Program-made: the position numbers and the translations under genes | DNA from: Bacilli bacterium | GTDB taxonomy: Bacteria; Bacillota_I; Bacilli_A; RF39; UBA660 | Direction: 5' to 3' | DNA length: 64,000 nucleotides | Assembly (NCBI GenBank): GCA_017416535.1 | Contig: JAFQCG010000001.1 | Location: 139,013-203,012 of the forward strand | Notes under the pieces: model-generated | The model's database searches: none | What the model saw: only the letters and a program-made list of their open reading frames with translations | What the model was told of the DNA's origin: nothing | Shown here: positions 11,445-46,253 of the stretch, piece after piece | How positions within the stretch are numbered: position 1 is the stretch's first letter | Layout of the letters: the number at the start of each line of letters is the position of its first letter

Positions 11445-12341
11445 TTATCCTCTAGGAATTATATTCATTACTTCTAAAATTCTATTTAAATCACTTGCAT
11501 TGACAAAACTAATTTCAATTTTATTATTTTTTACTTTTACTTTTGTTCCTAGTTTTTCACACATTTCATCTTGAATATATTGATATTCATTAGTTGTATT
11601 TCCTACTCTTTTTATTTTATTTGTTCTTTCATATTGATCTGTAGAATTAGTTAATGATTCTAATTGTCTTACACTTAATCCTTCTTCTACTATTTTATTT
11701 GCTAGTTCTTTTTGTTGAACATTATTATCTAATTTACTAAGTACTCTAGCATGTCCCATAGTGATTTTTCTTTCACTAATTTGTTGTTGAATATCTTCTG
11801 GAAGAGATAATAAACCAAGCATATTTGTAATATGACTTCTACTCTTTCCTAATCTCTTAGCTAATTCTTCTTGTGTTAAAGCTAATGTTTCGATTAATTT
11901 CTTATAAGCTGTCGCTTCTTCCACTGCATTTAGATTTTCTCTTTGTAGATTTTCTAATAATGCAATTTCCATCATTTCTGTATCATTAAAATCTCTAATA
12001 ATAGCTGGAATTTCTTCTAATCCTGCTAAAATTGAAGCTTTTACACGACGTTCTCCAGCAATTATTTCATATCCTTTGATACTTTTTTTAATAATTATAG
12101 GTTGGAAAACACCATGCTCTTTTATTGATGCAGCTAATTCTTGTAGTGCTGATTCATCAAATACTTTTCTTGGCTGATATGGATTGCTTCTTAATTCAGA
12201 TAATTTTACTTTTACGATTTCTTCACTTGGAGTCTCAGTAATTATTTTTTCTTCTACTTTATCATAGGCAATTGGTTCATTGAAAAATAGCTCTTCTAGA
12301 CCTCTTCCTAAAGCTCTTCTTTTTGTATTATTTGTCTCCAT
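11445..12341 (-). CDS. parB: chromosome partitioning protein ParB (Spo0J)
   Basis: RRALGRGLEELF N-terminus, ParB box GERRVKAS, HTH, conserved C-terminus. ATG 12341 chosen (RBS AAGGAAGTGA upstream). Confidence 0.85.
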   Translation of the reverse strand: METNNTKRRALGRGLEELFFNEPIAYDKVEEKIITETPSEEIVKVKLSELRSNPYQPRKVFDESALQELAASIKEHGVFQPIIIKKSIKGYEIIAGERRVKASILAGLEEIPAIIRDFNDTEMMEIALLENLQRENLNAVEEATAYKKLIETLALTQEELAKRLGKSRSHITNMLGLLSLPEDIQQQISERKITMGHARVLSKLDNNVQQKELANKIVEEGLSVRQLESLTNSTDQYERTNKIKRVGNTTNEYQYIQDEMCEKLGTKVKVKNNKIEISFVNASDLNRILEVMNIIPRG

Positions 12342-13116
12342 TTCTTGCAATCACTTCCTTTGCTAAATTGATATATGCTTCAGATCCTCTACTTTTTGGA
12401 TCGTATGCTACAATTGGTTCCCCATGTGATGGAGCTTCTGTTAATCTTACTAGTCTTGGAATTATTGTGTTATAAACTTTTTCTTTAAAGAATTTTCTAA
12501 TGTCATCAACAACTTCAAATCCTAAATTTGTTCTTGAATCAAGCATTGTTAGTAATACTCCTTCAATATCTAATGTTGGATTTAATGTTTTTTGTGCTAG
12601 CATAATTGTTTTTAATAATTGTGTAATACCTTCTAATGCAAAGAATTCACATTGTACTGGAATGATTACTGAGTTTGATGCAGTTAGTGCATTTGTTGTA
12701 ATTATTCCTAGTGAAGGAGGACAATCTAAGATAATATAGTCGAAACTATCAATTATTTCAGCTAAATGAATTTTTAATTGTTCTCCTTTTAAAAATCCAT
12801 TTTCTCTATGACTTTTTTCTACTAGTTCAATATCCAATCCCGCTAAATTAATTGTTGCTGGTAATACGTATAAATTTTTATATTTTGTTTTAATCATTGC
12901 TTCTGTAATCTTACATTCTCCTATTAAAACATCATATACGCTTTTTTCAATATCACCTTTGTTGATTCCTACACCAGTAGTTGTATTTCCTTGAGGGTCT
13001 AAATCAATTAATAATACTTTCTTCCCTAATACTGCTAATGATGCAGAAAGATTGATACTTGTAGTTGTTTTACCAACTCCACCTTTTTGATTTACTAATG
13101 ATATAACCTTTCCCAT
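12328..13116 (-). CDS. parA: chromosome partitioning ATPase ParA (Soj)
   Basis: 262 aa, deviant Walker A KGGVGKTT, LIDLDPQGN. Confidence 0.9.
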   Translation of the reverse strand: MGKVISLVNQKGGVGKTTTSINLSASLAVLGKKVLLIDLDPQGNTTTGVGINKGDIEKSVYDVLIGECKITEAMIKTKYKNLYVLPATINLAGLDIELVEKSHRENGFLKGEQLKIHLAEIIDSFDYIILDCPPSLGIITTNALTASNSVIIPVQCEFFALEGITQLLKTIMLAQKTLNPTLDIEGVLLTMLDSRTNLGFEVVDDIRKFFKEKVYNTIIPRLVRLTEAPSHGEPIVAYDPKSRGSEAYINLAKEVIARNGDK

Positions 13117-13217: not shown

Positions 13218-14567
13218 TTACTTATCTACCTTAATGATTATTTGATATGAATTATCAAAATTCATTTCATCAGCTTGTATCGAAATTCCATTTGCTTTTA
13301 ATTCTGAAATAGTGTCTCTTAACTTTTTCATTGCAGTATCAACATTATATTCTGTTTTAACTGTCATTTCTGGTATTCCCATATTTGTTGCTGCTATATT
13401 TGGAATAAAGTCTGCTGTTTTAAAATAATCTGCGGCCTTTTCTTGTGGCATTACTTTTGTAGCATCATTCTTTACAATTTCTTCTGCTGGTGTTAAGAAT
13501 GCACTTGTTCCTGGAATATTTCCTACAGATGGTCCTGCTCCTAAATTTTGTAAATTTAGTAAACTATCTAAATCTGCTGACGGCATTTTCTTTTCTTCTT
13601 TTGGTTCGCTTATATCAACAGCACTATTTCTTATAGAATTTAAATCTATTGGTGCTACTGGGTTATTAAATTGCATCGGTTCATCATCGTCGTCATCATC
13701 ATCAATTTCTCCGTAATTAATAAACTTAGATGTTTCTGATAATGTATTTGTTGAAGGTATTGTATTTATATCAACAATCGGTGGAACTGATGATGTTTCA
13801 CTAAAACTAGTTGGCTCTGTTGGTTCTTTAATATCCATCGTTGGCATAAGTGGATTTGTGTTTATAAAACTACTTGCTGGTGGTACTGAAATATCAATTG
13901 GTTTATTAATATTTTGATTTTCCATATCACTAGCACCTTCGTTCTTTTCTTCTTTTGGATATAATTGTTTTATTTCTTCCTCTACAGCTCTTACACTCAT
14001 TTTATTACTTATAATTTTCTTTAACATCTCTGTTTGTTTATTATGATCTGGTATATTTAAAAGTGCTCTTGCATGTCTTTCTGATATTTGTTCTTTTAAT
14101 AAGGAATCTTGAACATCATCTGGTAGTGATAATAATCTTAATTTATTAGCTACTGCAGATTGACTTTTTCCCATTGTTTTTGCTAAGTCTTCTTGTGTCA
14201 TTTCATCTATTTCTAGAATTTTTTGGTATGTTCTTGCTTCCTCTATTGGTGTTAAATTTTTTCTTTGTAAATTTTCTAATAAAGCTACTTTTGAACTTTC
14301 TTTATCATCTAGATCTCTTATAATTGCTGGTATTTTTGTTAAACCTGCTAAAGCTGATGCTTTATAACGTCTCTCTCCAGCTATTATTTCATACTTTCCT
14401 TTTACATTGCGGACAATAATTGGTTGAATTACACCATGTTCTTTTATAGATACAGCCAATTCTTTTAGTGCTTTTTCATCAAAAACCTCTCTTGGTTGAA
14501 ATCTGTTAGGTATTATGTCATCTAAATATAATTGGACTACTTGATCATTTGTATTTTCTGTATTCAT
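13218..14567 (-). CDS. noc: nucleoid occlusion protein Noc homolog (ParB paralog) with a long internal low-complexity insertion
   Basis: N-terminal ParB domain (IPNRFQPREVF, GERRYKAS), HTH (MTQEDLAKTMGKSQSAVANKLRLL) and C-terminus AMKKLRDTISELKANGISIQADEMNFDNSYQIIIKVDK, which aligns with the B. subtilis Noc C-terminus. Sits between rsmG and parA as in Bacillus. About 200 aa of P/S/T/D-rich sequence, including DDDDDDDE, is inserted. ATG 14567 has a GAGGGG RBS. Confidence 0.8.
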   Translation of the reverse strand: MNTENTNDQVVQLYLDDIIPNRFQPREVFDEKALKELAVSIKEHGVIQPIIVRNVKGKYEIIAGERRYKASALAGLTKIPAIIRDLDDKESSKVALLENLQRKNLTPIEEARTYQKILEIDEMTQEDLAKTMGKSQSAVANKLRLLSLPDDVQDSLLKEQISERHARALLNIPDHNKQTEMLKKIISNKMSVRAVEEEIKQLYPKEEKNEGASDMENQNINKPIDISVPPASSFINTNPLMPTMDIKEPTEPTSFSETSSVPPIVDINTIPSTNTLSETSKFINYGEIDDDDDDDEPMQFNNPVAPIDLNSIRNSAVDISEPKEEKKMPSADLDSLLNLQNLGAGPSVGNIPGTSAFLTPAEEIVKNDATKVMPQEKAADYFKTADFIPNIAATNMGIPEMTVKTEYNVDTAMKKLRDTISELKANGISIQADEMNFDNSYQIIIKVDK

Positions 14568-14640
14568 ATATTGTCCCCTCACTTTATTCTTTTTATCCTA
14601 TGTTATCATTATAGACTATTTTTTCTTTGCTTTCAATAAA

Positions 14641-14676
14641 AAAACATCTCTTTAATGTTATAGAGATGTCTTTTTA
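14641..14676 (-). terminator. terminator downstream of rsmG
   Basis: ACATCTCT-TTAATGTTAT-AGAGATGT hairpin plus T-run. Confidence 0.6.
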
Positions 14677-14685
14677 TGTATATTT

Positions 14686-20143: not shown

Positions 20144-20483
20144 GTAATTTTATATCCTTTCTTATATTATCCATTAATTGCAAAAATTCATTTTCTAATT
20201 CTTTATATTCCTTCTCTTTTGCAATTCCTCTTAATATTATAATATAATCTTGGCTATTTACATATAGTTTTTTGTAATTATCTATAATAGCTCTTAATTT
20301 TCTTTTATATTTATTTCGATTTACAGCATTCCCTATTCTTTTTCCTACTGATATTCCAAATCTATCGTATGGTAGATTATTTTTTTCATAATATATAACA
20401 TAGCTACTATTTTTTCGATAACGACCATCTTTTATTATTTTATCAAAATCACGTTGATTTTTTACTATATATAATTTTCTCAT
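20127..20483 (-). CDS. rnpA: ribonuclease P protein component
   Basis: 118 aa, basic. Follows rpmH in the conserved rpmH-rnpA-yidC arrangement. Confidence 0.85.
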   Translation of the reverse strand: MRKLYIVKNQRDFDKIIKDGRYRKNSSYVIYYEKNNLPYDRFGISVGKRIGNAVNRNKYKRKLRAIIDNYKKLYVNSQDYIIILRGIAKEKEYKELENEFLQLMDNIRKDIKLHEEKK

Positions 20484-20539
20484 TTAATCACCTAACTTTA
20501 TGGTAATACTAAAAAACCACTGTTTTATCAGCGGTATTT

Positions 20540-20662
20540 TTATTTACAAAGACTTTTACGTCCTTTACGACGACGACGATTTAATATATTTGTTTTTTTG
20601 CGTGCGAAAAAACCTAATCTTTTAGCTTTTTTACGGTTGTTTGGTTGATATGTTCTCTTCAT
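20540..20662 (-). CDS. rpmH: 50S ribosomal protein L34
   Basis: Below the 60-aa cutoff so not in the ORF track. Minus-strand translation gives [40 protein letters not shown], with a GGAGGTGG RBS at 20669-20676 (complement). Confidence 0.85.
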
Positions 20663-20759
20663 TTATTCCACCTCCAGACATAAATCTCCATTATTATAAT
20701 AGAATTTTCTTATTTTTGTCAATAAAATGTTTGTTTTTTCAGTAAATATTTAGATTTCA

Positions 20760-20885
20760 ACAATATCCACAGGAATGTGGAATACTTAAATAGAGATTGT
20801 TAAAAAAAATCTGTGGAAAATGTGGAAAACTCATTTTTTCTTATATATATCAACATTTTAATAGTGGAAAAAAATGTGGAAATCT
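20760..20885. promoter_or_regulatory. oriC DnaA-box cluster upstream of dnaA
   Basis: At least 6 DnaA-box-like 9-mers (ATATCCACA, TGTGGAATA, 2x TGTGGAAAA in tandem, AGTGGAAAA, TGTGGAAAT). Each is 7-8/9 matches to TTATCCACA / TGTGGATAA. Confidence 0.75.
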
Positions 20886-21141
20886 TGTTTAAAACTTTTT
20901 TTATAAAAAAATGGTTTATTTTTTCAACAAATTCAATTATACTAATCGTGACAATTTTAATTATGGGAGAATTAACCCCTAGAAGTATTTATAGAGTAGG
21001 GGATAAATTAATATTAATATAGATATTATTAATAAAATCTTTTATAATTAAAGTGATATATATGTTTTTTAAAAAAAGGGTTTTCTTTTTTATTAAAGTA
21101 ACATATACTAATTCGTATAAATTTCTTGCGGGGGAGATGGT
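20886..21141. promoter_or_regulatory. AT-rich region (candidate DNA unwinding element and dnaA promoter)
   Basis: More than 85% A+T with long A/T tracts, lying between the DnaA-box cluster and the dnaA start. Confidence 0.5.
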
Positions 21142-22518: not shown

Positions 22519-22538
22519 AACTTTTGTTAAGTAAAATT

Positions 22539-22610
22539 TTTTCCACAGATTGAAATATGAATTTTACTTTGAAAAATAAAGGAAAAAGAGATTTTTAAAC
22601 TTTTTCCACA
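22539..22610. promoter_or_regulatory. DnaA boxes in the dnaA-dnaN intergenic part of oriC
   Basis: TTTTCCACA at 22539-22547 and 22602-22610 (8/9 matches each). Confidence 0.65.
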
Positions 22611-22648
22611 GTAATAATATAAATAATTAAAAGAAAGAAGGAATATAT

Positions 22649-27583: not shown

Positions 27584-30064
27584 ATGGATAGATTAGAAAA
27601 AAATAGTATTGTAAAAGAAGTCCAAGACTCTTTCTTAGAATATTCAATGAGTGTTATTGTTGCTCGTGCTTTACCTGACTTGAGGGATGGTTTAAAGCCA
27701 GTTCATAGAAGAATTTTATATTCTATGTACGAGTCTGGTTATACACCTGATAAACCTCATAAAAAGAGTGCAAGAATTGTCGGAGATGTAATGGGTAAAT
27801 ATCACCCACATGGTGATTCTTCTATTTATGAAGCAATGGTAAGAATGGCTCAAGATTTCTCATATCGCTATATGTTAGTTGATGGACATGGTAACTTTGG
27901 TAATATAGAAGGTTACGGGGCTGCGGCAATGCGTTATACAGAGTCTCGTTTATCTAAAATTTCATTAGAATTGCTTAGAAATATTAATAAAGATACAGTT
28001 GATTTTTCTCCTAACTTTGATGAGAGTGAAAGGGAACCAGCTGTATTACCTTCGAGATTTCCTAATATTTTAGTTAATGGAACTACTGGTATAGCTGTAG
28101 GAATGGCAACAAACATTCCACCACATAACTTAGGAGAAGTTATTGATGGGTGCGTTGCTTATATTGATAATCCTGATATTGATGTAGATGGATTAATGAA
28201 ATATATTAAAGGACCTGATTTTCCTACGGGTGCTACAATTTTAGGAAATAGTGGTATAAAGAAAGCATATGAAACTGGAAGAGGTTCAATAACAATTAGA
28301 AGTAAAGCTACTATTGAGGAAAAAAATGGAAAACAATATATTATTGTTGATGAAGTTCCTTATGGTGTTAATACATTAGAATTAAAGAATAAGGTGGCAG
28401 AACTTGTTCATAATAAAACAATTGAAGGAATTGCTGATTACCATTCAGATTTAAAAGATGGAATTAAAATTACAATTACTTTGAAAAAAGATGCAAATGC
28501 TCAAGTTGTTTTAAATAAATTATATAAGCATACTTCATTCCAAACTTCATATGGTATTATTTTCCTTATGTTAGACCAAGGAGTCCCAAAAACATTAGGA
28601 TTAAAGGATATTATTAGTAAATATATTGAATATCAAAAAGAAGTTATTATTAGAAGAACTAGATTTGATCTAGATGTGGCAGAAAAAAGAGTTCATATAT
28701 TAGAGGGTTTAAAAATTGCGTTAGATAATATTGATGCTGTTATCAAATTAATTCGTGCAGCAAAATCTGATGAAGAAGCTAGAAATGGCTTAATGAATAA
28801 CTTTAAATTAAGTGAAGTTCAAGCAAATGCAATTTTGGAAATGAAATTACGTCGTTTAACGGGCTTAGAGCGTGAAAAGATTGAAAATGAACTAAATGAC
28901 TTATTAAAGTTAATTGACGAGTTACGTGCTATTTTAGCTAGTGATGCGAAGATATTAGAAGTTATTAAAAATGAGTTATTAGAAATTAAAGATAAATATG
29001 GAGATGAAAGACGAACAAATATTGATATGACAGCTATTGAATATATCGAAGATGAATCTTTAATTCCTGAAGAAGATATAATTATTACACTAACTAAAAA
29101 TGGTTATATAAAAAGATTAAGATCAGATACTTATAGAACTCAAAATAGAGGAGGAGTTGGAGTTAAGGGTATGGCTACAAATGAAGATGATTTTGTAGAA
29201 CATATGATTTCAATGAAAACTCATGATTATTTATTATTCTTCTCTAATAGAGGTAGAGTATATAGAATGAAAGGTTATGAGGTTCCTGAATATGCAAGAC
29301 AATCTAAAGGGTTACCAATTATTAACTTGTTACCACTAGAAAAAGATGAGAACATTAGTTCGATTGTTGAGTTAGATGCTAACGATGATATTACTAAATA
29401 TTTAATGTTTGCAACACGTAATGGTATTGTTAAACGTACTGAAATAGGTGAGTTTGATAGTATTCGTAAAGGTGGTAAAATTGCAATTGTTTTAAAGGAA
29501 GATGATGAATTAATTTCAGTTAGAAAGACTTGTGGAAAAAATGAAATTGCAATTGGAGCAAGTAATGGACGAATGGTTAGATTTGATGAAAATGAAATTC
29601 GTTCAATGGGTAGAAGTAGTTCTGGAGTTAAGGGAATTGATTTAGATGGTGCGACTGTAGTTGGTGCTGAAGTAGTTAATTCTGGACAATATATTCTAAT
29701 TGTTACTGAAAAAGGTTACGGTAAGAAAACTGTGATTGATGAGTATAGATTAACTCATAGAGGAAGTAAAGGTGTAAGAGCATTTAATGTTACTGAAAAG
29801 AATGGTATGATGTCTGCTCTTAAATGTGTGGATGAAGGTAATGACTATGATGTAATAGTTGTTACTAATAGTGGTATTATCATGAAAATGCCAGGAGAGC
29901 AAATTTCAACTTTAAAACGTGCTACTCAAGGAGTTAGATTAATTAATTTAAAAGATGATCAAACTGTAGCTACTGTTGCAATTGTAGCGAAGGAAGAAGA
30001 ATCAGAAGATTCAGAACTTACTGATACCCCTGTGGATAAAATAAATTCTGAAGTTACAGCTTAA
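27584..30064 (+). CDS. gyrA: DNA gyrase subunit A
   Basis: 826 aa, active-site region [10 protein letters not shown]-terminal beta-pinwheel repeats. Confidence 0.95.
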
Positions 30065-30186
30065 TTAATTAAAAGGATGTTTACATCCTTTTTTTTATTT
30101 TGTTTTTTCATTTTATATAAATTTACCCTTGTGGAAAAAATTATTTTTGTTAATTAATTATTTAAGTAAAATTATTTCCCAAAAAT

Positions 30187-30200
30187 ATTTCCCGGGAAAT
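30187..30200. promoter_or_regulatory. Noc-binding site (NBS) palindrome ATTTCCCGGGAAAT
   Basis: Perfect 14-bp match to the B. subtilis Noc-binding consensus. A half-site-like GGGAAATAAT follows immediately. Confidence 0.6.
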
Positions 30201-30373
30201 AATTTGGGAAATAATTATATTTTTTTACATTTAGTCAATAAATTTATATGTTTTTATTTAAAAAACAGCTGAAATGTGTCAAATTTGACGTCATGATTCA
30301 TTTTAAGAGATTTTTCTATTTTTATACGTATATGTGATAGTTTAATTTTGTTAAAATTAACGTTTTTATTATT

Positions 30374-30389
30374 GGTTTCACGTGAAACT
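30374..30389. promoter_or_regulatory. near-consensus parS site (GGTTTCACGTGAAACT, 14/16)
   Basis: Matches the ParB/Spo0J parS consensus TGTTTCACGTGAAACA at 14 of 16 positions. Confidence 0.55.
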
Positions 30390-30445
30390 TTTTTTATTGT
30401 AATTATTTATTATGTGTCTATAAAACTGTAGAAAATTTTTATTTA

Positions 30446-30461
30446 TGTTTCACGTGAAACA
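30446..30461. promoter_or_regulatory. perfect parS site TGTTTCACGTGAAACA
   Basis: 16/16 match to the Firmicute parS consensus. A perfect DnaA box follows 4 bp downstream. Confidence 0.75.
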
Positions 30462-30464
30462 TTT

Positions 30465-30473
30465 TATCCACAA
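30465..30473. promoter_or_regulatory. perfect DnaA box TTATCCACA
   Basis: 9/9 consensus. Confidence 0.6.
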
Positions 30474-30538
30474 TTTTGTGAATTTTTAAAAATTATATTT
30501 ATATTTATTTTATTAATATATTTTTATGTTTTGATTTT

Positions 30539-30547
30539 TTATCCACA
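30539..30547. promoter_or_regulatory. perfect DnaA box TTATCCACA
   Basis: 9/9 consensus. Confidence 0.6.
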
Positions 30548-30632
30548 TTTGCTGTGCAATTGTAGTTTTTTTGTTAATTATTAATATTTGTTTATATATT
30601 TTAAATAATTATTAAGTATTTTAATTTGTTTA

Positions 30633-30648
30633 TGTTTCACGTGAAACA
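30633..30648. promoter_or_regulatory. perfect parS site TGTTTCACGTGAAACA
   Basis: 16/16. Part of a 29-bp direct repeat TATGTTTCACGTGAAACATTTTATCCACA, also present at 30444-30473. Confidence 0.75.
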
Positions 30649-30650
30649 TT

Positions 30651-30659
30651 TTATCCACA
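30651..30659. promoter_or_regulatory. perfect DnaA box TTATCCACA
   Basis: 9/9 consensus. Confidence 0.6.
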
Positions 30660-30792
30660 GAAATTGTTAATAAGTTTAATATATATATAAAAATCCACTG
30701 TTTTTGTGTATAAATTTCTTTTTCTATAATAAATTTGAATCATTTAAAACTATTTACAAAATTATATTCTTATATTAAAATATATATCGTGC

Positions 30793-30866
30793 AATGGAAG
30801 TGTTTGAACCAGGTCAGGATCGGAAGGTAGCAGCCTTAAGGACCTCCTTCCATGTGCACTTTTTTA
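30793..30866 (+). ncRNA. ffs: signal recognition particle RNA (small, 4.5S-type)
   Basis: ACCAGGUCAGGAUCGGAAGGUAGCAGCCUUAAGG nearly matches the E. coli 4.5S domain IV (ACCAGGUCAGGUCCGGAAGGAAGCAGCCAAGG). It is enclosed by a 12-bp stem (GUGCAAUGGAAG / CUUCCAUGUGCAC) and followed by a U-run. In B. subtilis scr lies next to tadA-dnaX. Confidence 0.7.
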
Positions 30867-30879
30867 TTGGAGTGATTTT

Positions 30880-31326
30880 ATGAATTTAGAATATATGGAA
30901 GTTGCTTTTAAAGAAGCTGAAAAGGCATTTAAAAGGGGAGAAGTTCCTATTGGTGCTGTTATTGTTAAAAACGGTAAAATAATTGCAAAAGCATTTAATA
31001 ATAAGGAAAAAAAGCATTGTTGTATTGAACATGCTGAAATTACAGCTATAAAAAGAGCTTCTAGAAAACTTAAAAATTGGCGTTTAGAGGATTGTGATAT
31101 CTATGTGACATTAGAACCATGTCCGATGTGTGCAAGTGCTATTAAACAATCGAGAATTAAAAATGTTTATTCTGCTTTAAAAAATAGTGATATAAATAAT
31201 ATTGATATTATTAATAGAATATTTAATGCCGATAAAGTTAATCCTAAAGTTAATTTTGTTAATAATTTATCTGTGGAAAAAAGTACGACATTATTACAAA
31301 AATTCTTCTCTAGCAGAAGAAAATAG
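30880..31326 (+). CDS. tadA: tRNA-specific adenosine deaminase TadA
   Basis: 148 aa, CDA zinc motifs HAEITAI and PCPMC. Confidence 0.85.
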   Translation: MNLEYMEVAFKEAEKAFKRGEVPIGAVIVKNGKIIAKAFNNKEKKHCCIEHAEITAIKRASRKLKNWRLEDCDIYVTLEPCPMCASAIKQSRIKNVYSALKNSDINNIDIINRIFNADKVNPKVNFVNNLSVEKSTTLLQKFFSSRRK

Positions 31327-31377: not shown

Positions 31378-33150
31378 ATGTATCGTGCTTTATATAGAAA
31401 ATATAGACCTCAAGGATTTGAAAGCGTTGTTGGTCAAAATACTATTGTAAAAACGTTACTAAATTCGGTTAAAAATGGTTCTTTTGGACATGCTTACATG
31501 TTTTTTGGACCTCGTGGTGTAGGAAAAACAACGGCTTCTAAAATTTTTGCTAGAGCTATTAATTGTTTGGAACCAATTGATGGTAATGCATGTGGTAAAT
31601 GTTCTAATTGTAGTCATTCTTTTGAAAAAGAGTGTGTTGATATTATAGAAATAGATGCTGCATCTAATAATGGTGTTGATGAAATAAGAGAATTAAAAAA
31701 TAAAATTTCTTTAGTACCTGCTGAACTTAAATATAAGGTATATATAATTGATGAAGTTCATATGTTGTCAATTGGTGCTTTTAATGCACTTCTTAAAACT
31801 TTAGAAGAACCGCCAGAACATGCAATTTTTATTTTAGCAACAACTGATCCTCAAAAAGTTCCTGAAACTATTATTTCAAGATGTCAATGTTTTTCTTTTA
31901 AGAGAATTTCTGATGAAATGATTGTGGATAGACTTAAAACTGTATGTGAAAATGAAAATATTGATATAGATGAAGAAGTTTTAAGGGAAATTGCAATTGC
32001 TTCAGATGGAGGAATGAGAGATTCATTAAGTTCTCTTGATAAATTAATTTCTTATTCTGATAAAAAAATTACAGTTGATGATTTTGCTGAACTAAATGGT
32101 ATGATTACTAAAAAAGATTTAATTGAACTATGTGATAATGTTTTTGAAGGTGATATTGCAAAAGTTTTATTTAAATTGAATAAATTTAATAGTGATGGTA
32201 AAAATTTAATTCAAATTATATTACAATTAATGCATTTTTTACGTAATTCAGTTGTAAATTACTATGTGGAAAACAAAAAATGTAATTATTCTATAGATGA
32301 TATGTTAAAATTAATTAATATTATTAACGAAAATATGTTCGATATTAAAAAGAGTGGTAATCCTAAAATATTTATTGAAATGTTATTAATAAAATATATA
32401 AAAGACACTGGTGGTGACAAAATTATTTCCCAGGAAATAAAAAATGATAATGATTTAAAAAAATCTATAATTACTAGTGATGATAAATTAGGTGAAGATG
32501 ATGATAATTCTTTGGAAAATGAGTCTGATTCTAATAGTGTTGAACTTGATGAAGAGGATGAAGAAGAATTTGATTTTGATAAAGAGTATTCTGACGAAGA
32601 AGAATATAATGATGAATTTATTGAAAAAAACGTTGTGGATAAAGTTGTTTTAGAAGACTCTAATGATGAACAAAGACAAATTATCAATATTGATGAGATA
32701 ATGAAAATAAGAGTTAATAATACTTTAGCATGTGCTAATAAAAATATATTGAACCAAGAAATTGATAATATGAAGTTATTAAACGATTTTACATTTGATC
32801 AAGAAATTGGTTATATTGTATGTAATTTACTTGATTCTAATATTAGAGCTGCTAGCGAAGATAGCATAATTATAAGTTTTGAATATGATTCGATAGTTAA
32901 ACAAAATTTAATGGAATTAGAAAAAATTATATATGTTTATAATAAAATTACTAATTCAAATAAGAAAATCGCTATTATTACTGATGAAGAATGGGAAAAA
33001 GAAAAAAGTAATTACATTAAAAGTATTAAAGATGGTAAGACATACCAAGTTGTGGAAGAACCTAAAGAAATCTATGAAGAAGTTAAAAAAAATGATATAA
33101 TATCTAATAGTGCAATGGAACTATTTGGTGATATTGTAGAAATTAAATAA
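31378..33150 (+). CDS. dnaX: DNA polymerase III subunit gamma/tau
   Basis: 590 aa, Walker A GPRGVGKTT, zinc module CGKCSNC, and an acidic low-complexity linker. Confidence 0.9.
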   Translation: MYRALYRKYRPQGFESVVGQNTIVKTLLNSVKNGSFGHAYMFFGPRGVGKTTASKIFARAINCLEPIDGNACGKCSNCSHSFEKECVDIIEIDAASNNGVDEIRELKNKISLVPAELKYKVYIIDEVHMLSIGAFNALLKTLEEPPEHAIFILATTDPQKVPETIISRCQCFSFKRISDEMIVDRLKTVCENENIDIDEEVLREIAIASDGGMRDSLSSLDKLISYSDKKITVDDFAELNGMITKKDLIELCDNVFEGDIAKVLFKLNKFNSDGKNLIQIILQLMHFLRNSVVNYYVENKKCNYSIDDMLKLINIINENMFDIKKSGNPKIFIEMLLIKYIKDTGGDKIISQEIKNDNDLKKSIITSDDKLGEDDDNSLENESDSNSVELDEEDEEEFDFDKEYSDEEEYNDEFIEKNVVDKVVLEDSNDEQRQIINIDEIMKIRVNNTLACANKNILNQEIDNMKLLNDFTFDQEIGYIVCNLLDSNIRAASEDSIIISFEYDSIVKQNLMELEKIIYVYNKITNSNKKIAIITDEEWEKEKSNYIKSIKDGKTYQVVEEPKEIYEEVKKNDIISNSAMELFGDIVEIK

Positions 33151-43826: not shown

Positions 43827-43839
43827 TGGTATAAAAATT

Positions 43840-43853
43840 ATTTCCCGGGAAAT
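43840..43853. promoter_or_regulatory. Noc-binding site (NBS) palindrome ATTTCCCGGGAAAT in the spoVT upstream region
   Basis: Perfect 14-mer, identical to the site at 30187. It lies 29 bp upstream of the spoVT start. Confidence 0.6.
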
Positions 43854-43881
43854 AATATTTTTAGGGAAAGTGAGGAATAAT

Positions 43882-44412
43882 ATGAAGTCAACAGGTGTTG
43901 TTAGAAGAGTAGATGATTTAGGAAGAATTGTTATTCCAAAAGAAATAAGAAGAACTCTTAGAATTAGAGATGGTGAAGAGTTAGAAATATTTGTAGATGA
44001 CGAAGCTATCATTTTAAAAAAATTTTCAAATGTCGCAGATTTAGGTGATGTATCAAAAAAAATTGTTGATGTTGTAAGTTCTTTTATTGGTAAGACTGTG
44101 TTAGTTACGGATAGAGATACATTTATTACTGGAAGTGGTGAGTTAAAGAAAAAATATTTAAATAAGGAGATATCTAGTTATATTGAAGATATTATGTCTA
44201 ATCGTAATGTTGTGGTTCAGAAGAATATTGGAAATATTCAGTTGGGTGATGTTTCTGGCGAAATGTATTCTTATATTATTAATCCTATTATTAGTTTTGG
44301 TGATGTCATTGGGTCTGTTATTGTGATATCTACTAGTAGTGATATTTCTGAATTTGATGTTACTATTACTGGAATGATTACACAATTTTTAGGAAAATAT
44401 GTTGAAGATTAA
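43882..44412 (+). CDS. spoVT: stage V sporulation protein T (AbrB-N domain + GAF-like domain)
   Basis: MKSTGVVRRVDDLGRIVIPKEIRRTLRIRDGEELEIFVD nearly matches B. subtilis SpoVT. The C-terminal domain is also conserved. Lies downstream of mfd, as in Bacillus. Confidence 0.8.
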   Translation: MKSTGVVRRVDDLGRIVIPKEIRRTLRIRDGEELEIFVDDEAIILKKFSNVADLGDVSKKIVDVVSSFIGKTVLVTDRDTFITGSGELKKKYLNKEISSYIEDIMSNRNVVVQKNIGNIQLGDVSGEMYSYIINPIISFGDVIGSVIVISTSSDISEFDVTITGMITQFLGKYVED

Positions 44413-44439: not shown

Positions 44440-44705
44440 ACTTTTTAAATGTGTTGATGAAGAGTCTATAGCAAAACGTTTATTTTTAGAGACCTCGGTT
44501 AGGTGAAAGCGAGGAATAGATTAAGTTATATGATATGGCTTCTGAACTACTATATCGATATGTAGGTATAGTCGTAGATAGGCGTTAACTATTTAAGTGT
44601 ATAATATCAAATTATTATGAAATAAGGTGGTACCGCGAAAATCTTCGTCCTTATGTCGTAATAATTTTTTTTTGATATTTAATATGATTAAAGGGAGTGA
44701 TTTTG
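44440..44705 (+). promoter_or_regulatory. putative T-box riboswitch leader of metS
   Basis: AAUAAGGUGGUACCGCG at 44621-44637 matches the T-box core AAUUAGGGUGGUACCGCG. About 250 nt of structured leader precede the aminoacyl-tRNA synthetase gene. The specifier and terminator were not resolved by eye. Confidence 0.55.
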
Positions 44706-46253
44706 ATGGCAGAAAAATATTATATTTCTACTGCAATTGCTTATACTTCAGGTAAACCTCATATTGGGAATACTTATGAGATTGTTTTAGCAGATGCAAT
44801 TGCGAGATGGAAAAGATTAAAAGGTTATGATGTTTATTTTCAAACTGGAACAGATGAACATGGTATTAAAATTGAGGAGAAAGCTGCAGCAGCTGGTGTT
44901 GAACCACAATCATTTGTTGATGATGTAGCTGGAGAAATTAAACGTATTTGGGATTTAATGAATACAAGTTATGATCGTTTTGTTAGAACTACTGATAAGC
45001 GACATAAAGAAGTTGTTCAACATATTTTTAAGAAAATGTATGATAAAGGAGATATTTACAAAGGTGAATACAAGGGACTTTATTGTACTCCTTGTGAATC
45101 TTTTTGGACTGAGTCTCAATTAGTTGATGGTAAGTGTCCTGATTGTGGAAGAGATGTTCATGAGCAAAGTGAGGAAGCATATTTCTTTAAATTAAGTAAT
45201 TATCAAGAAAAACTTGAAAAGTACATTGAGGAACATCCTGATTTTATTCAACCTGTGGCACGTAAGAATGAAATGTTAAATAACTTTATCAAACCTGGAC
45301 TACAAGATTTATGTGTTTCACGTACAACATTAAAATGGGGAATTCCAGTAGATTTTGATCCTAAGCATGTTGTATATGTCTGGCTAGATGCATTAACAAA
45401 TTATATTACTAATATAGGATATGATGTAGATAATGCAAATGAAGAATTTAAAAAACTTTGGCCAGCAGACTTACATTTGATTGGAAAAGATATTATTCGT
45501 TTCCATACTATCTATTGGCCTTGTTTCTTATGGTCTTTAGATTTAGAATTACCTAAGAAAGTTTTTGGACACCCTTGGTTATTAACTAGTAGTGATAAGA
45601 TGAGTAAGTCTAAAGGAAATGTTATTTATGCTGACGATTTAGTTGATAAGTTTGGATTAGATGCAGTTAGATTCTATTTATTACATGAAATTCCATTTGC
45701 AAGTGATGGTAATATTACTTATGATTTATTAATTGAAAGAGTTAATAGTGAGTTGGCAAATGTATTAGGTAATTTAGTTCAAAGAACTATTTCTATGGGA
45801 AATAAATATTTTGAGGGAAAAGTTACTAACAAGAAGGTTAATGGAGAAGTAGATGAGGTATTTATTAATAGTATTAATGAATTAGATGGTTTAGTTACTG
45901 CTAAAATGGATGAATTGCAAGTGGCTGATGCTATGACTGAAATCTTTAATGTTTTACGTGCTTCTAATAAGTATATTGATGATACTATGCCTTGGGCTTT
46001 AGCTAAAGATGAAACTCAACAAGATAGATTGGAAACTGTTTTATATAACTTACTTGAATCTATTAGAGTATGTGGTTCTATGTTAGAAGCATTTATGCCA
46101 GATACAAGTGCTAGTGTTTTAAGTCAAATTAATAGCACAGATAAATCTTATACATTTAATGAAAATAGTTCTTATGAATTAGGACAACCTAGTCCTTTGT
46201 TCCAAAGAATTGATCGTGATAAATTTATTGCAGAACATAATTTAGAAGTGTAA
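44706..46253 (+). CDS. metG: methionine--tRNA ligase (short form, no C-terminal tRNA-binding extension)
   Basis: HIGH-like PHIGNTYE, KMSKS, zinc knuckle CTPCESF...CPDCG. Confidence 0.9.
   Translation: MAEKYYISTAIAYTSGKPHIGNTYEIVLADAIARWKRLKGYDVYFQTGTDEHGIKIEEKAAAAGVEPQSFVDDVAGEIKRIWDLMNTSYDRFVRTTDKRHKEVVQHIFKKMYDKGDIYKGEYKGLYCTPCESFWTESQLVDGKCPDCGRDVHEQSEEAYFFKLSNYQEKLEKYIEEHPDFIQPVARKNEMLNNFIKPGLQDLCVSRTTLKWGIPVDFDPKHVVYVWLDALTNYITNIGYDVDNANEEFKKLWPADLHLIGKDIIRFHTIYWPCFLWSLDLELPKKVFGHPWLLTSSDKMSKSKGNVIYADDLVDKFGLDAVRFYLLHEIPFASDGNITYDLLIERVNSELANVLGNLVQRTISMGNKYFEGKVTNKKVNGEVDEVFINSINELDGLVTAKMDELQVADAMTEIFNVLRASNKYIDDTMPWALAKDETQQDRLETVLYNLLESIRVCGSMLEAFMPDTSASVLSQINSTDKSYTFNENSSYELGQPSPLFQRIDRDKFIAEHNLEV

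Follow-up and report, generated by a model that had tools for sequence, protein, structure and literature searches.

A noc gene beside the replication origin

The DNA analysed here, a 64-kb stretch that we call the window, comes from a Bacilli bacterium (RF39; UBA660; assembly GCA_017416535.1, contig JAFQCG010000001.1, positions 139,013-203,012 of the forward strand). It carries a noc-like gene whose product joins the cytidine triphosphate (CTP)-binding and DNA-binding domains of Noc to a probable Noc-type C-terminal domain through a 202-residue acidic linker, and which lacks the N-terminal membrane-targeting helix. On its sequence features and genomic setting, this protein is the Noc ortholog of an uncultured gut lineage of Bacilli (order RF39 and relatives). 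We consider it probable, on balance, that in this lineage the N-terminal helix has been replaced by the linker, which would act through its motifs as an effector arm.

The genes jag, mnmE, mnmG, rsmG, noc, parA, parB and DUF951 follow one another on the minus strand, and this block adjoins the plus-strand series dnaA-dnaN-recF-gyrB-gyrA. The window has a GC content of 27%, and its cumulative GC skew reaches a minimum at 20770, which indicates that the window spans the replication origin; together with the switch in gene orientation, this minimum places oriC upstream of dnaA. The position of noc, rsmG(gidB)-noc-soj-spo0J near oriC, is the canonical one. The window's canonical ParB is a protein of 301 residues with a short linker, the N-terminal sequence ALGRGLEELF (which contains the LGRGL motif) and the parS-type specificity residues R and G.

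The noc open reading frame (13218-14582, minus strand) extends up to a GTG at 14582; the ATG at 14567 is the likelier start because a GAGGGG Shine-Dalgarno sequence lies 7 nt upstream of it, and the N-terminus cannot be longer, as an in-frame stop lies at 14598-14600. The same 449-residue product was obtained by independent gene callers on 15 contigs of separate assemblies, including one of more than 1 Mb, which excludes an assembly artefact. Directly after the rsmG stop (14636-14680, minus strand) lies a hairpin, gacatctct...agagatgt, with a T run, followed by a near-consensus promoter for noc (Table 1). A strict scan called no terminators in the flanks of noc, and missed this hairpin because its loop is 9 nt long. 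Given the hairpin, T run and promoter in the rsmG-noc gap, noc may be transcribed apart from rsmG.

The assignment to Noc draws on matches to solved structures, the score against the NCBIfam Noc model, the specificity residues, synteny, cognate Noc-binding sites (NBS) in the window and intact CTP boxes. Among solved structures, the best matches are Noc proteins (7NG0/7NFU, 213 bits; 7OL9, 192 bits), followed by Spo0J (6SDK, 176 bits). The NCBIfam model TIGR04285 gives 296.4 bits for the native protein and 245 for the ParB of the window. With the linker removed in silico, the alignment runs over the full length of the model (1-255 of 255) and reaches 308.9 bits, and the last 47 residues match model positions 209-255 (E = 5e-4, 19.5 bits). 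The CTP boxes FQPR, GERRxR and ENLQR are intact, the sole change being GERRYK, with K for R at the last position of box II; in B. subtilis Noc the equivalent residue, R91, tolerates mutation to alanine.

Specificity for NBS versus parS is set by four positions, of which Q173 and R201 (Caulobacter numbering) read the two differing bases; one permissive lysine, at 179 or 184, suffices alongside them for NBS (Jalal 2020, PMC7383237). In the window protein these positions fall in GKSQSAVANKLRLLS...SERHAR, where Q136, K142, S147 and R164 correspond to Q173, K179, S184 and R201, so that Q and R stand where a parS-type protein has R173 and G201. The equivalents of Q173, K179 and R201 are invariant among 76 orthologs. 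A pattern survey of the fetched proteins, which are nearly all long-linker Nocs, found Q and R in every one and K in almost every one.

Pfam matches only ParB_N (E = 5e-35) and the helix-turn-helix (HTH) family HTH_ParB, together covering residues 9-202 of 449. In an AlphaFold2 model built with the 76 orthologs, residues 1-202 are folded, residues 203-404 are mostly disordered (predicted local distance difference test score, pLDDT, mostly below 50) with weak helices at residues 309-315, 333-336 and 360-370, and residues 409-449 form one helix plus two strands (pLDDT 80-86).

An N-terminal amphipathic helix was predicted in all Noc homologs examined by Adams 2015 and is needed for function. In the window protein no amphipathic membrane-targeting helix is found at residues 1-10/15. 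Only 19 residues precede PNRFQPR, versus 39 in B. subtilis Noc (7OL9) and 37 in G. thermoleovorans Noc (7NFU); the alignment to solved Noc proteins begins only at Noc residue 24-26, and both the FSRFFGLG helix and the next helix, alpha-2, are missing in the alignment to 7OL9 and 7NFU. The N-terminus, MNTENTND, is polar with a low hydrophobic moment, and the ParA-stimulating peptide LG(R/K)GL is not present in these 19 residues. The protein is thus a Noc ortholog by descent that fails the one mechanistic feature held to define Noc function.

These results bear out much of the initial annotation, which had described a Noc paralog at the rsmG-noc-parA-parB position. Gene order agrees with that placement, and the structure matches and NCBIfam alignment agree with its description of the ParB N-domain, HTH and C-terminal part as Noc-like. 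The insertion of about 200 residues that it placed between the HTH and the C-terminal domain measures 202 residues (203-404), and the upstream stop supports its N-terminus of about 20 residues without an FSRFFGLG-like helix.

The linker and its conserved motifs

The linker contains 35 acidic versus 14 basic residues (net charge -21), and 37% of it is P, S, T or N. Its DDDDDDDE run (residues 289-296) is encoded by (GAT)n at 13681-13704, and the motif [IVLM]-D-[IVL]-[NSK] occurs five times (IDIS, MDIK, VDIN, IDLN and VDIS), versus a mean of 0.16 in shuffled sequences, none of 5000 of which reached five. The only repeats at the DNA level are the (GAT)8 run and a 9-bp microrepeat, which rules out a recent tandem expansion as the source of the linker.

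We took conservation as the mean frequency of the commonest residue in the 76-sequence alignment. The folded N-terminal part reaches 0.92, the C-terminal domain 0.68 and the linker 0.51, with islands of higher conservation within the linker: 0.96 in KFINYGEI, 0.91 in ADLDSLLNL, 0.86 in (F)(I/L)TPAEEIVK, 0.85 in DYFKTP and 0.82 in (NP)LMPT. The PP pair at residues 262-263 is invariant or nearly so, and the acidic run after KFINYGEI is kept in composition across orthologs. Three motifs, M1, M2 and M3, are kept in fixed order far outside the RF39 clade. M1 has the family-wide pattern phi-D-phi-x-x-phi-K/R-x-x-A-x-D-I, and M2 follows it by at most 30 residues, usually 7-15, where both motifs match. 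M3 has the clade consensus (Y/F)KFITPAEEIVKTD, takes the form GKFFSLPIEEEKEE in distant clades, and can be generalised as [KR]-F-[FI] followed by acidic residues; in the P0260 clade it is found in 83 of 84 proteins, versus 5.5 expected from shuffles. By this measure of conservation the linker motifs are under strong purifying selection, and the islands are the signature of a disordered region with short linear interaction motifs. We argue from their conservation that the linker has a specific function.

No Pfam family was matched by 19 sequences comprising the linker plus C-terminal domain. M2 (ADLDSLL) bears a loose likeness to GLxALL in the ParB N-terminal peptide, without its LG(R/K) part. 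In some distant clades (P0246, P0269 and P0261) the linker has grown by tandem repeats of aromatic- and acidic-rich peptides, such as PEFNFVNQEPE in about eight copies, repeats of the YESVPTYEVPE type, and NLNNPWTM..EPSKIVEP, giving proteins of up to about 670 residues.

The long linker is widespread. A GTDB scan with one genome per species found relatives in 314 species, and all 80 loci kept for inspection match over the whole protein, are full length and carry the insertion; the complete order mnmE-mnmG-rsmG-noc-parA-parB-DUF951-abgT is present in 63 of them, and the other 17 show parts of it. A word-index search added more than 120 protein clusters (53-98% identity), all full length at 420-490 residues. 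The insertion is therefore a lineage trait. A profile of the linker plus C-terminal domain, run against 1.84 billion representatives, matched 241 proteins; two are spurious repeat proteins, and the other full-length ones that we read are Noc-like, 358-622 residues long, with short N-termini. A further homolog search revealed a second large long-linker clade, with linkers of up to about 500 residues, and no cultured organism was among its matches. Scanning GTDB genomes with the linker of a single protein gave no match, whereas the alignment-based scan succeeded. A homolog search with the B. subtilis N-terminus yielded only short fragments, which served to compare N-terminal motifs but not architectures; ParB fragments carry the LG(R/K)GL motif.

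Across the family, the tail after the HTH spans 157-509 residues. About 275 full-length long-linker proteins have 14-21 residues before PNRFQPR, save one with 30 and an apparently mis-called start, and all of them are without the N-terminal helix. In every case examined a missing N-terminal peptide goes with an inserted linker, and both states are derived, since the ParB outgroup has the peptide and a short linker. All carriers are uncultured Bacilli, those with names being members of order RF39: the kept relatives are gut metagenome-assembled genomes labelled Bacilli, Tenericutes, Mollicutes, Mycoplasma sp. CAG:877 or Ca. Faecimonas, and Ca. Faecimonas (genus CAG-877) and Ca. Faecenecus (genus CAG-988) have been placed in order RF39, family CAG-611 (Gilroy et al., PMC8035907). 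A literature search for Noc or nucleoid occlusion in connection with RF39, Mollicutes or Erysipelotrichia gave no relevant paper.

The description of the insertion in the initial annotation needs some revision in this light. Its DDDDDDDE run and reiterated motifs are present, well above the shuffled expectation, and the proposed disorder prediction agrees, with residues 203-404 mostly below a pLDDT of 50. The insertion had been called low-complexity; it is disordered and acidic, but islands conserved at 82-96% mean that it is not simply of low complexity. Among the P-I-D-I/L repeats, the APIDLNSIR..AVDIS pair is family-wide, while the other copies are specific to the species group. The insertion is not a one-off novelty, as the ortholog comparison shows, and the frameshift or assembly artefact that the annotation had allowed for falls away with the 15 concordant contigs. 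The amphipathic helix that it had proposed to look for was not found: a hydrophobic-moment scan detected no cationic amphipathic segment in the linker, and all top-scoring segments lie in the folded domains.

NBS, parS and DnaA boxes downstream of gyrA

The window contains two perfect NBS and one with a single mismatch (Table 1), versus 0.18 expected by chance at up to two mismatches, and CCCGGG occurs in the 64 kb only within the two perfect sites. Its perfect NBS and parS sequences are those of the published consensus. The gap of about 800 bp between gyrA and the small signal recognition particle (SRP) RNA (30064-30880) holds one perfect NBS, three parS sites and three perfect DnaA boxes, two of which abut the perfect parS sites, with the third at 30539. 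The NBS at 30186 lies within a longer palindrome, ATTTCCCaaaaatATTTCCCGGGAAATaatTTGGGAAAT (30164-30222), whose outer arms resemble separated NBS half-sites; in a related locus, L119, the TTTGGGAAAT arm likewise comes after the NBS of the repeat unit. The densest cluster of perfect DnaA boxes in the window is in this same gap (30065-30782), about 9.5 kb from the GC-skew minimum, and only one-mismatch boxes occur upstream of dnaA (20144-21141) and between dnaA and dnaN (22519-22648).

We examined the same region in metagenome loci fetched with the window's GyrA, counting sites with up to one mismatch. In 21 RF39-like loci (GyrA at least 65% identical, GC 25-29%), the first 2.5 kb after gyrA (37 kb in all) hold 32 of 43 NBS and all 80 parS sites. 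The 213 kb upstream of the gyrA stop have 6 NBS and no parS, and the 59 kb lying more than 2.5 kb after gyrA have 5 NBS and no parS. In 57 gyrA loci of more distant taxa we found no NBS save a single one-mismatch match. The 80 noc-centred loci (L001-L080, 956 kb) contain no NBS and no perfect parS, with one parS at one mismatch, and the counterpart stretch of the window, its own noc block, has no NBS or perfect parS either. B. subtilis has a parS inside spo0J, unlike the RF39 mnmE-to-abgT block that holds parB.

The interleaving, mild in the window, is stronger in some relatives, where the sites are joined into repeated units. Locus L082 (12474-13022) has 4.6 tandem units of 119 bp, and L119 (2440-3081) has 6.1 tandem units of 105 bp, with one NBS and one parS in each unit. 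Locus L086 (12492-14050) has five contiguous NBS-aatt-TTATCCACA-a-parS elements, in which predicted binding sites for Noc, DnaA and ParB stand back to back. The conservation of NBS around gyrA in relatives strengthens the case that NBS are functional in this lineage, and the arrays suggest that Noc and ParB would be loaded next to each other near the origin. Outside the array, the window has NBS at 32424 and 43839, and relatives have them at -4.5 to -11 kb and +2.2 to +6.4 kb.

The NBS at 43839 lies just before a SpoVT-like gene that encodes a MazE/AbrB-type N-terminal domain plus SpoVT_C (site and gene together, 43839-44412). This agrees with the reported retention of sporulation genes in RF39, and the promoter region of a sporulation regulator would then contain a Noc site. 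Rfam places the small SRP RNA at 30783-30868, after gyrA and before tadA, and a T-box leader at 44445-44655, upstream of a 518-residue open reading frame (44697-46253).

Table 1. Coordinates of the noc gene, its protein domains and motifs, and nearby binding sites in the window
Feature	Position	Strand	Details
noc-like coding sequence	13218-14567	minus	449 residues plus stop; ATG start at 14567
parA/soj and parB/spo0J partner genes	11445-13116	minus	parA/soj 12328-13116; parB/spo0J 11445-12350
Putative sigma-70-type promoter	14608-14636	minus	TTGAAA-17-TATAAT in the rsmG-noc gap; 11/12 consensus match only
ParB N-terminal (CTP-binding) domain	14265-14543	minus	residues 9-101; Pfam
Box I, PNRFQPR	14490-14510	minus	in ParB N-terminal domain
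Box II, GERRYKA	14358-14378	minus	in ParB N-terminal domain
ENLQR box	14262-14276	minus	in ParB N-terminal domain
HTH_ParB DNA-binding domain	13962-14261	minus	residues 103-202
Disordered acidic linker	13356-13961	minus	residues 203-404; net charge -21
Noc-type C-terminal domain	13221-13355	minus	residues 405-449; assignment probable; one predicted helix plus two strands
Island NPLMPT	13839-13856	minus	residues 238-243; specific to RF39 clade
KFINYGEI plus poly-Asp	13680-13727	minus	residues 281-296; most conserved linker island (96%)
Motif M1, PIDLNSIRNSAVDIS	13608-13652	minus	residues 306-320
Motif M2, ADLDSLLNL	13551-13577	minus	residues 331-339; family-wide (core DLDSLL)
Motif M3, FLTPAEEIVKND	13464-13499	minus	residues 357-368
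Island DYFKTAD	13410-13430	minus	residues 380-386; clade form DYFKTPD
NBS, perfect 16-bp consensus TATTTCCCGGGAAATA	30186-30201		123 bp after gyrA stop
NBS, one mismatch, TATTTCCCAGGAAATA	32424-32439		inside dnaX
NBS, perfect 16-bp	43839-43854		about 15 bp upstream of spoVT-like gene
parS cluster	30374-30659		perfect at 30446 and 30633; two-mismatch at 30374

A possible effector arm, and comparison with known systems

By analogy with the Bacillus paradigm (PMC8429893, PMC4331003), the RF39 Noc would load at NBS as a CTP-dependent clamp, close upon stimulation by NBS, and spread onto nearby DNA. We hypothesize that the acidic disordered linker between the DNA-binding and putative dimerisation domains, 200-450 residues long, is the effector arm, a role that its conservation points to. 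Through its motifs, this long and flexible tether would link the clamp on DNA to a partner, the candidate being a membrane-associated protein or a protein of division or segregation; contact with the membrane itself through the K-F-(F/I) motifs would be less likely. Because many NBS lie beside parS and DnaA boxes near the origin, part of Noc's job is probably origin-proximal, as joint organisation of the region with ParB or anchoring of it, and not only division inhibition across the genome. The CTP-dependent recruitment of DNA to the membrane and the inhibition of division over the nucleoid are functions of the Noc family that would apply here only by analogy.

Several points weigh against this proposal. 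Both the native and the linker-excised protein miss the curated TIGR04285 cut-off of 315 bits. Position 184 is S in the window protein and mostly N or S in the family (108 N, 80 S and 9 K among the surveyed proteins, nearly all long-linker Nocs), whereas canonical Noc almost always has K; with K179 as its only permissive lysine, the protein may be shifted in affinity or site tolerance. A net charge of -21 and the lack of a cationic amphipathic helix argue against direct membrane binding by the linker, and its K-F-(F/I)..acidic motifs resemble the canonical N-terminal SRFFGLGEKEQE in one direction of comparison only. NBS binding, CTP switching and contact with a membrane or partner are what we infer from sequence, and an important caveat to the site counts is that the NBS sampling covers ori-proximal DNA only.

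The score below the curated threshold could also be explained if the gene were misassigned, either as a frameshift or assembly error that fused unrelated sequence, or as a second parS-binding ParB. We regard this as very improbable. The identical product on 15 independent contigs and an architecture common to hundreds of orthologs speak against an artefact, and a second parS-binding ParB would be hard to reconcile with Q/K/R in place of ParB's R/G, with a canonical ParB already encoded two genes downstream, and with cognate NBS in the window. A purely DNA-bound Noc, whose linker is a flexible acidic spacer or entropic bristle without a specific partner, is quite unlikely. Such a linker might exclude other proteins sterically or electrostatically, or tune clamp dynamics or self-association, and it would suit the disorder and acidity seen family-wide, the large variation in tail length and the growth of some linkers by tandem peptide repeats. 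However, a spacer does not account for six islands at 82-96% identity in linkers that are otherwise about 40% conserved, or for the M1-M2 spacing kept across clades.

Another reading is that the membrane-targeting sequence was relocated and not lost. Internal K-F-(F/I)-x-x..acidic motifs, such as KFINYGEI-DDDD and (K)F(I/L)TPAEE here and GKFFSLPIEEEKEE in other clades, would bind the membrane, and the long linker would give them reach. A matrix built from 76 M3 instances, whose best window in the window protein is KFINYGEIDDDD, selects HSFSRFFGLGEKEQEP as the best window in residues 1-96 of B. subtilis Noc; this is the membrane-targeting helix, in register, and its score of +5.8 is reached by 1e-4 of 19,510 background windows (shuffle P 0.012). 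By eye, SKFINYGEIDDD matches SRFFGLGEKEQE, with S, F, G and E identical, and the helix is a transplantable module (Adams 2015). However, the M3 instances were chosen by a pattern with [KR][FY][FILV], which inflates the forward score, and the reciprocal matrix, from 34 canonical N-termini, singles out no linker motif: its best window stands at the 5.6e-3 background level, and KFINYGEI ranks only second. The window protein's M3 (SAFLTPAEE) is without a basic residue, the motifs are followed by Pro or set in strongly acidic sequence, and the AlphaFold2 helices there are only weak. Direct membrane binding through the linker is thus possible but unlikely, and binding to a protein partner is the more probable contact.

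The distribution of sites allows another emphasis. Noc, ParB and DnaA could co-assemble on the arrays of NBS, parS and DnaA boxes downstream of gyrA, with Noc primarily not a division inhibitor; the linker-bearing protein would organise, anchor or insulate the origin, or tune initiation, with an outcome like that of RacA, RicO or S. aureus Noc. We think this a realistic possibility, if not the expected one. It would explain why 32 of 43 NBS and all parS sites in the RF39-like loci crowd into 2.5 kb, why NBS and parS alternate in the tandem units of L082 and L119 and the contiguous elements of L086, and why NBS, parS and perfect DnaA boxes share one gap in the window. Two reports fit as well: S. 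aureus Noc is reported to control replication initiation (PMC5540599), and Spo0J and Noc are reported to work in concert under a block of early replication (PMC6852036). On the other hand, the NBS outside the array would fit a scattered genome-wide set as in Bacillus, several relatives (L085, L089-L092 and L122) have parS arrays without NBS, and the ori-proximal sampling may partly cause the apparent enrichment. An origin-region role is also compatible with the effector-arm model that we prefer, and does not exclude it. We tentatively combine the two, in a version that we hold to be rather unlikely as a whole: a CTP clamp without the helix, loaded at NBS, would assemble together with ParB, and possibly DnaA, on the composite arrays, and its arm would tether or condense the origin onto a protein partner. 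If true, this would unite centromere, origin anchor and division checkpoint in one system, a combination not described for any ParB-family protein.

These proposals matter because the current model of Noc rests on one output, in which an N-terminal amphipathic helix, freed by CTP binding, brings DNA to the membrane. A large natural clade of abundant gut bacteria, hundreds of species in all, retains the parts that read NBS and bind CTP but has, where the helix module would be expected as output, a conserved disordered arm of a different kind. Either nucleoid occlusion has another route, or Noc has a second, origin-proximal role. The conserved linker motifs provide a short list of peptides for partner tests, and the interleaved arrays of NBS, parS and DnaA boxes are a natural case in which two sister CTP clamps would be loaded next to each other. 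This is relevant to the way in which ParB-family clamps can share a stretch of DNA.

Compared with the Noc proteins of B. subtilis, G. thermoleovorans and S. aureus (TIGR04285; 7OL9, 7NFU, 7NG0 and 6Y93), the RF39 Noc shares the CTP-binding N-terminal domain, the HTH with NBS specificity of the Q173, K179 and R201 type, the rsmG-noc-soj-spo0J position, an identical 16-bp consensus NBS in the genome and, probably, the Noc-type C-terminal domain. At its output end it departs from all characterised Nocs through the absence of the N-terminal membrane-targeting helix, and it differs further in S instead of K at position 184, in a score below the curated family cut-off, and in NBS that are clustered in RF39 relatives and interleaved with parS beside the origin. 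The linkers differ as well. B. subtilis Noc is 283 residues long, and from this length we estimate about 15-20 residues for the canonical linker, versus 202 acidic, disordered and motif-bearing residues here. Chromosomal ParB/Spo0J has the same fold and CTP boxes, is encoded by an adjacent paralogous gene and has its parS sites beside those of Noc, but the window Noc has Q/R instead of R/G, no LG(R/K)GL peptide, and a long linker.

Beyond the ParB family, SlmA of E. coli is a site-specific DNA-binding nucleoid occlusion protein with a TetR fold that contacts the C-terminal tail of FtsZ. If the linker motifs bind a division protein, the RF39 Noc would resemble SlmA as a factor bound at DNA sites that acts by protein contact and not by membrane insertion, although the TetR fold is unrelated and SlmA has neither a CTP switch nor a disordered arm. 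RacA of B. subtilis binds DNA in the origin region and also binds DivIVA. RicO of S. aureus is a site-specific DNA binder with sites near the origin and a C-terminal amphipathic helix (bioRxiv 10.64898/2026.03.06.710092). The RF39 Noc is like both in having sites concentrated near the origin and, potentially, a separate module that reaches the membrane or the pole; their DNA-binding domains are unrelated to that of Noc, and anchoring by the RF39 protein is what we hypothesize.

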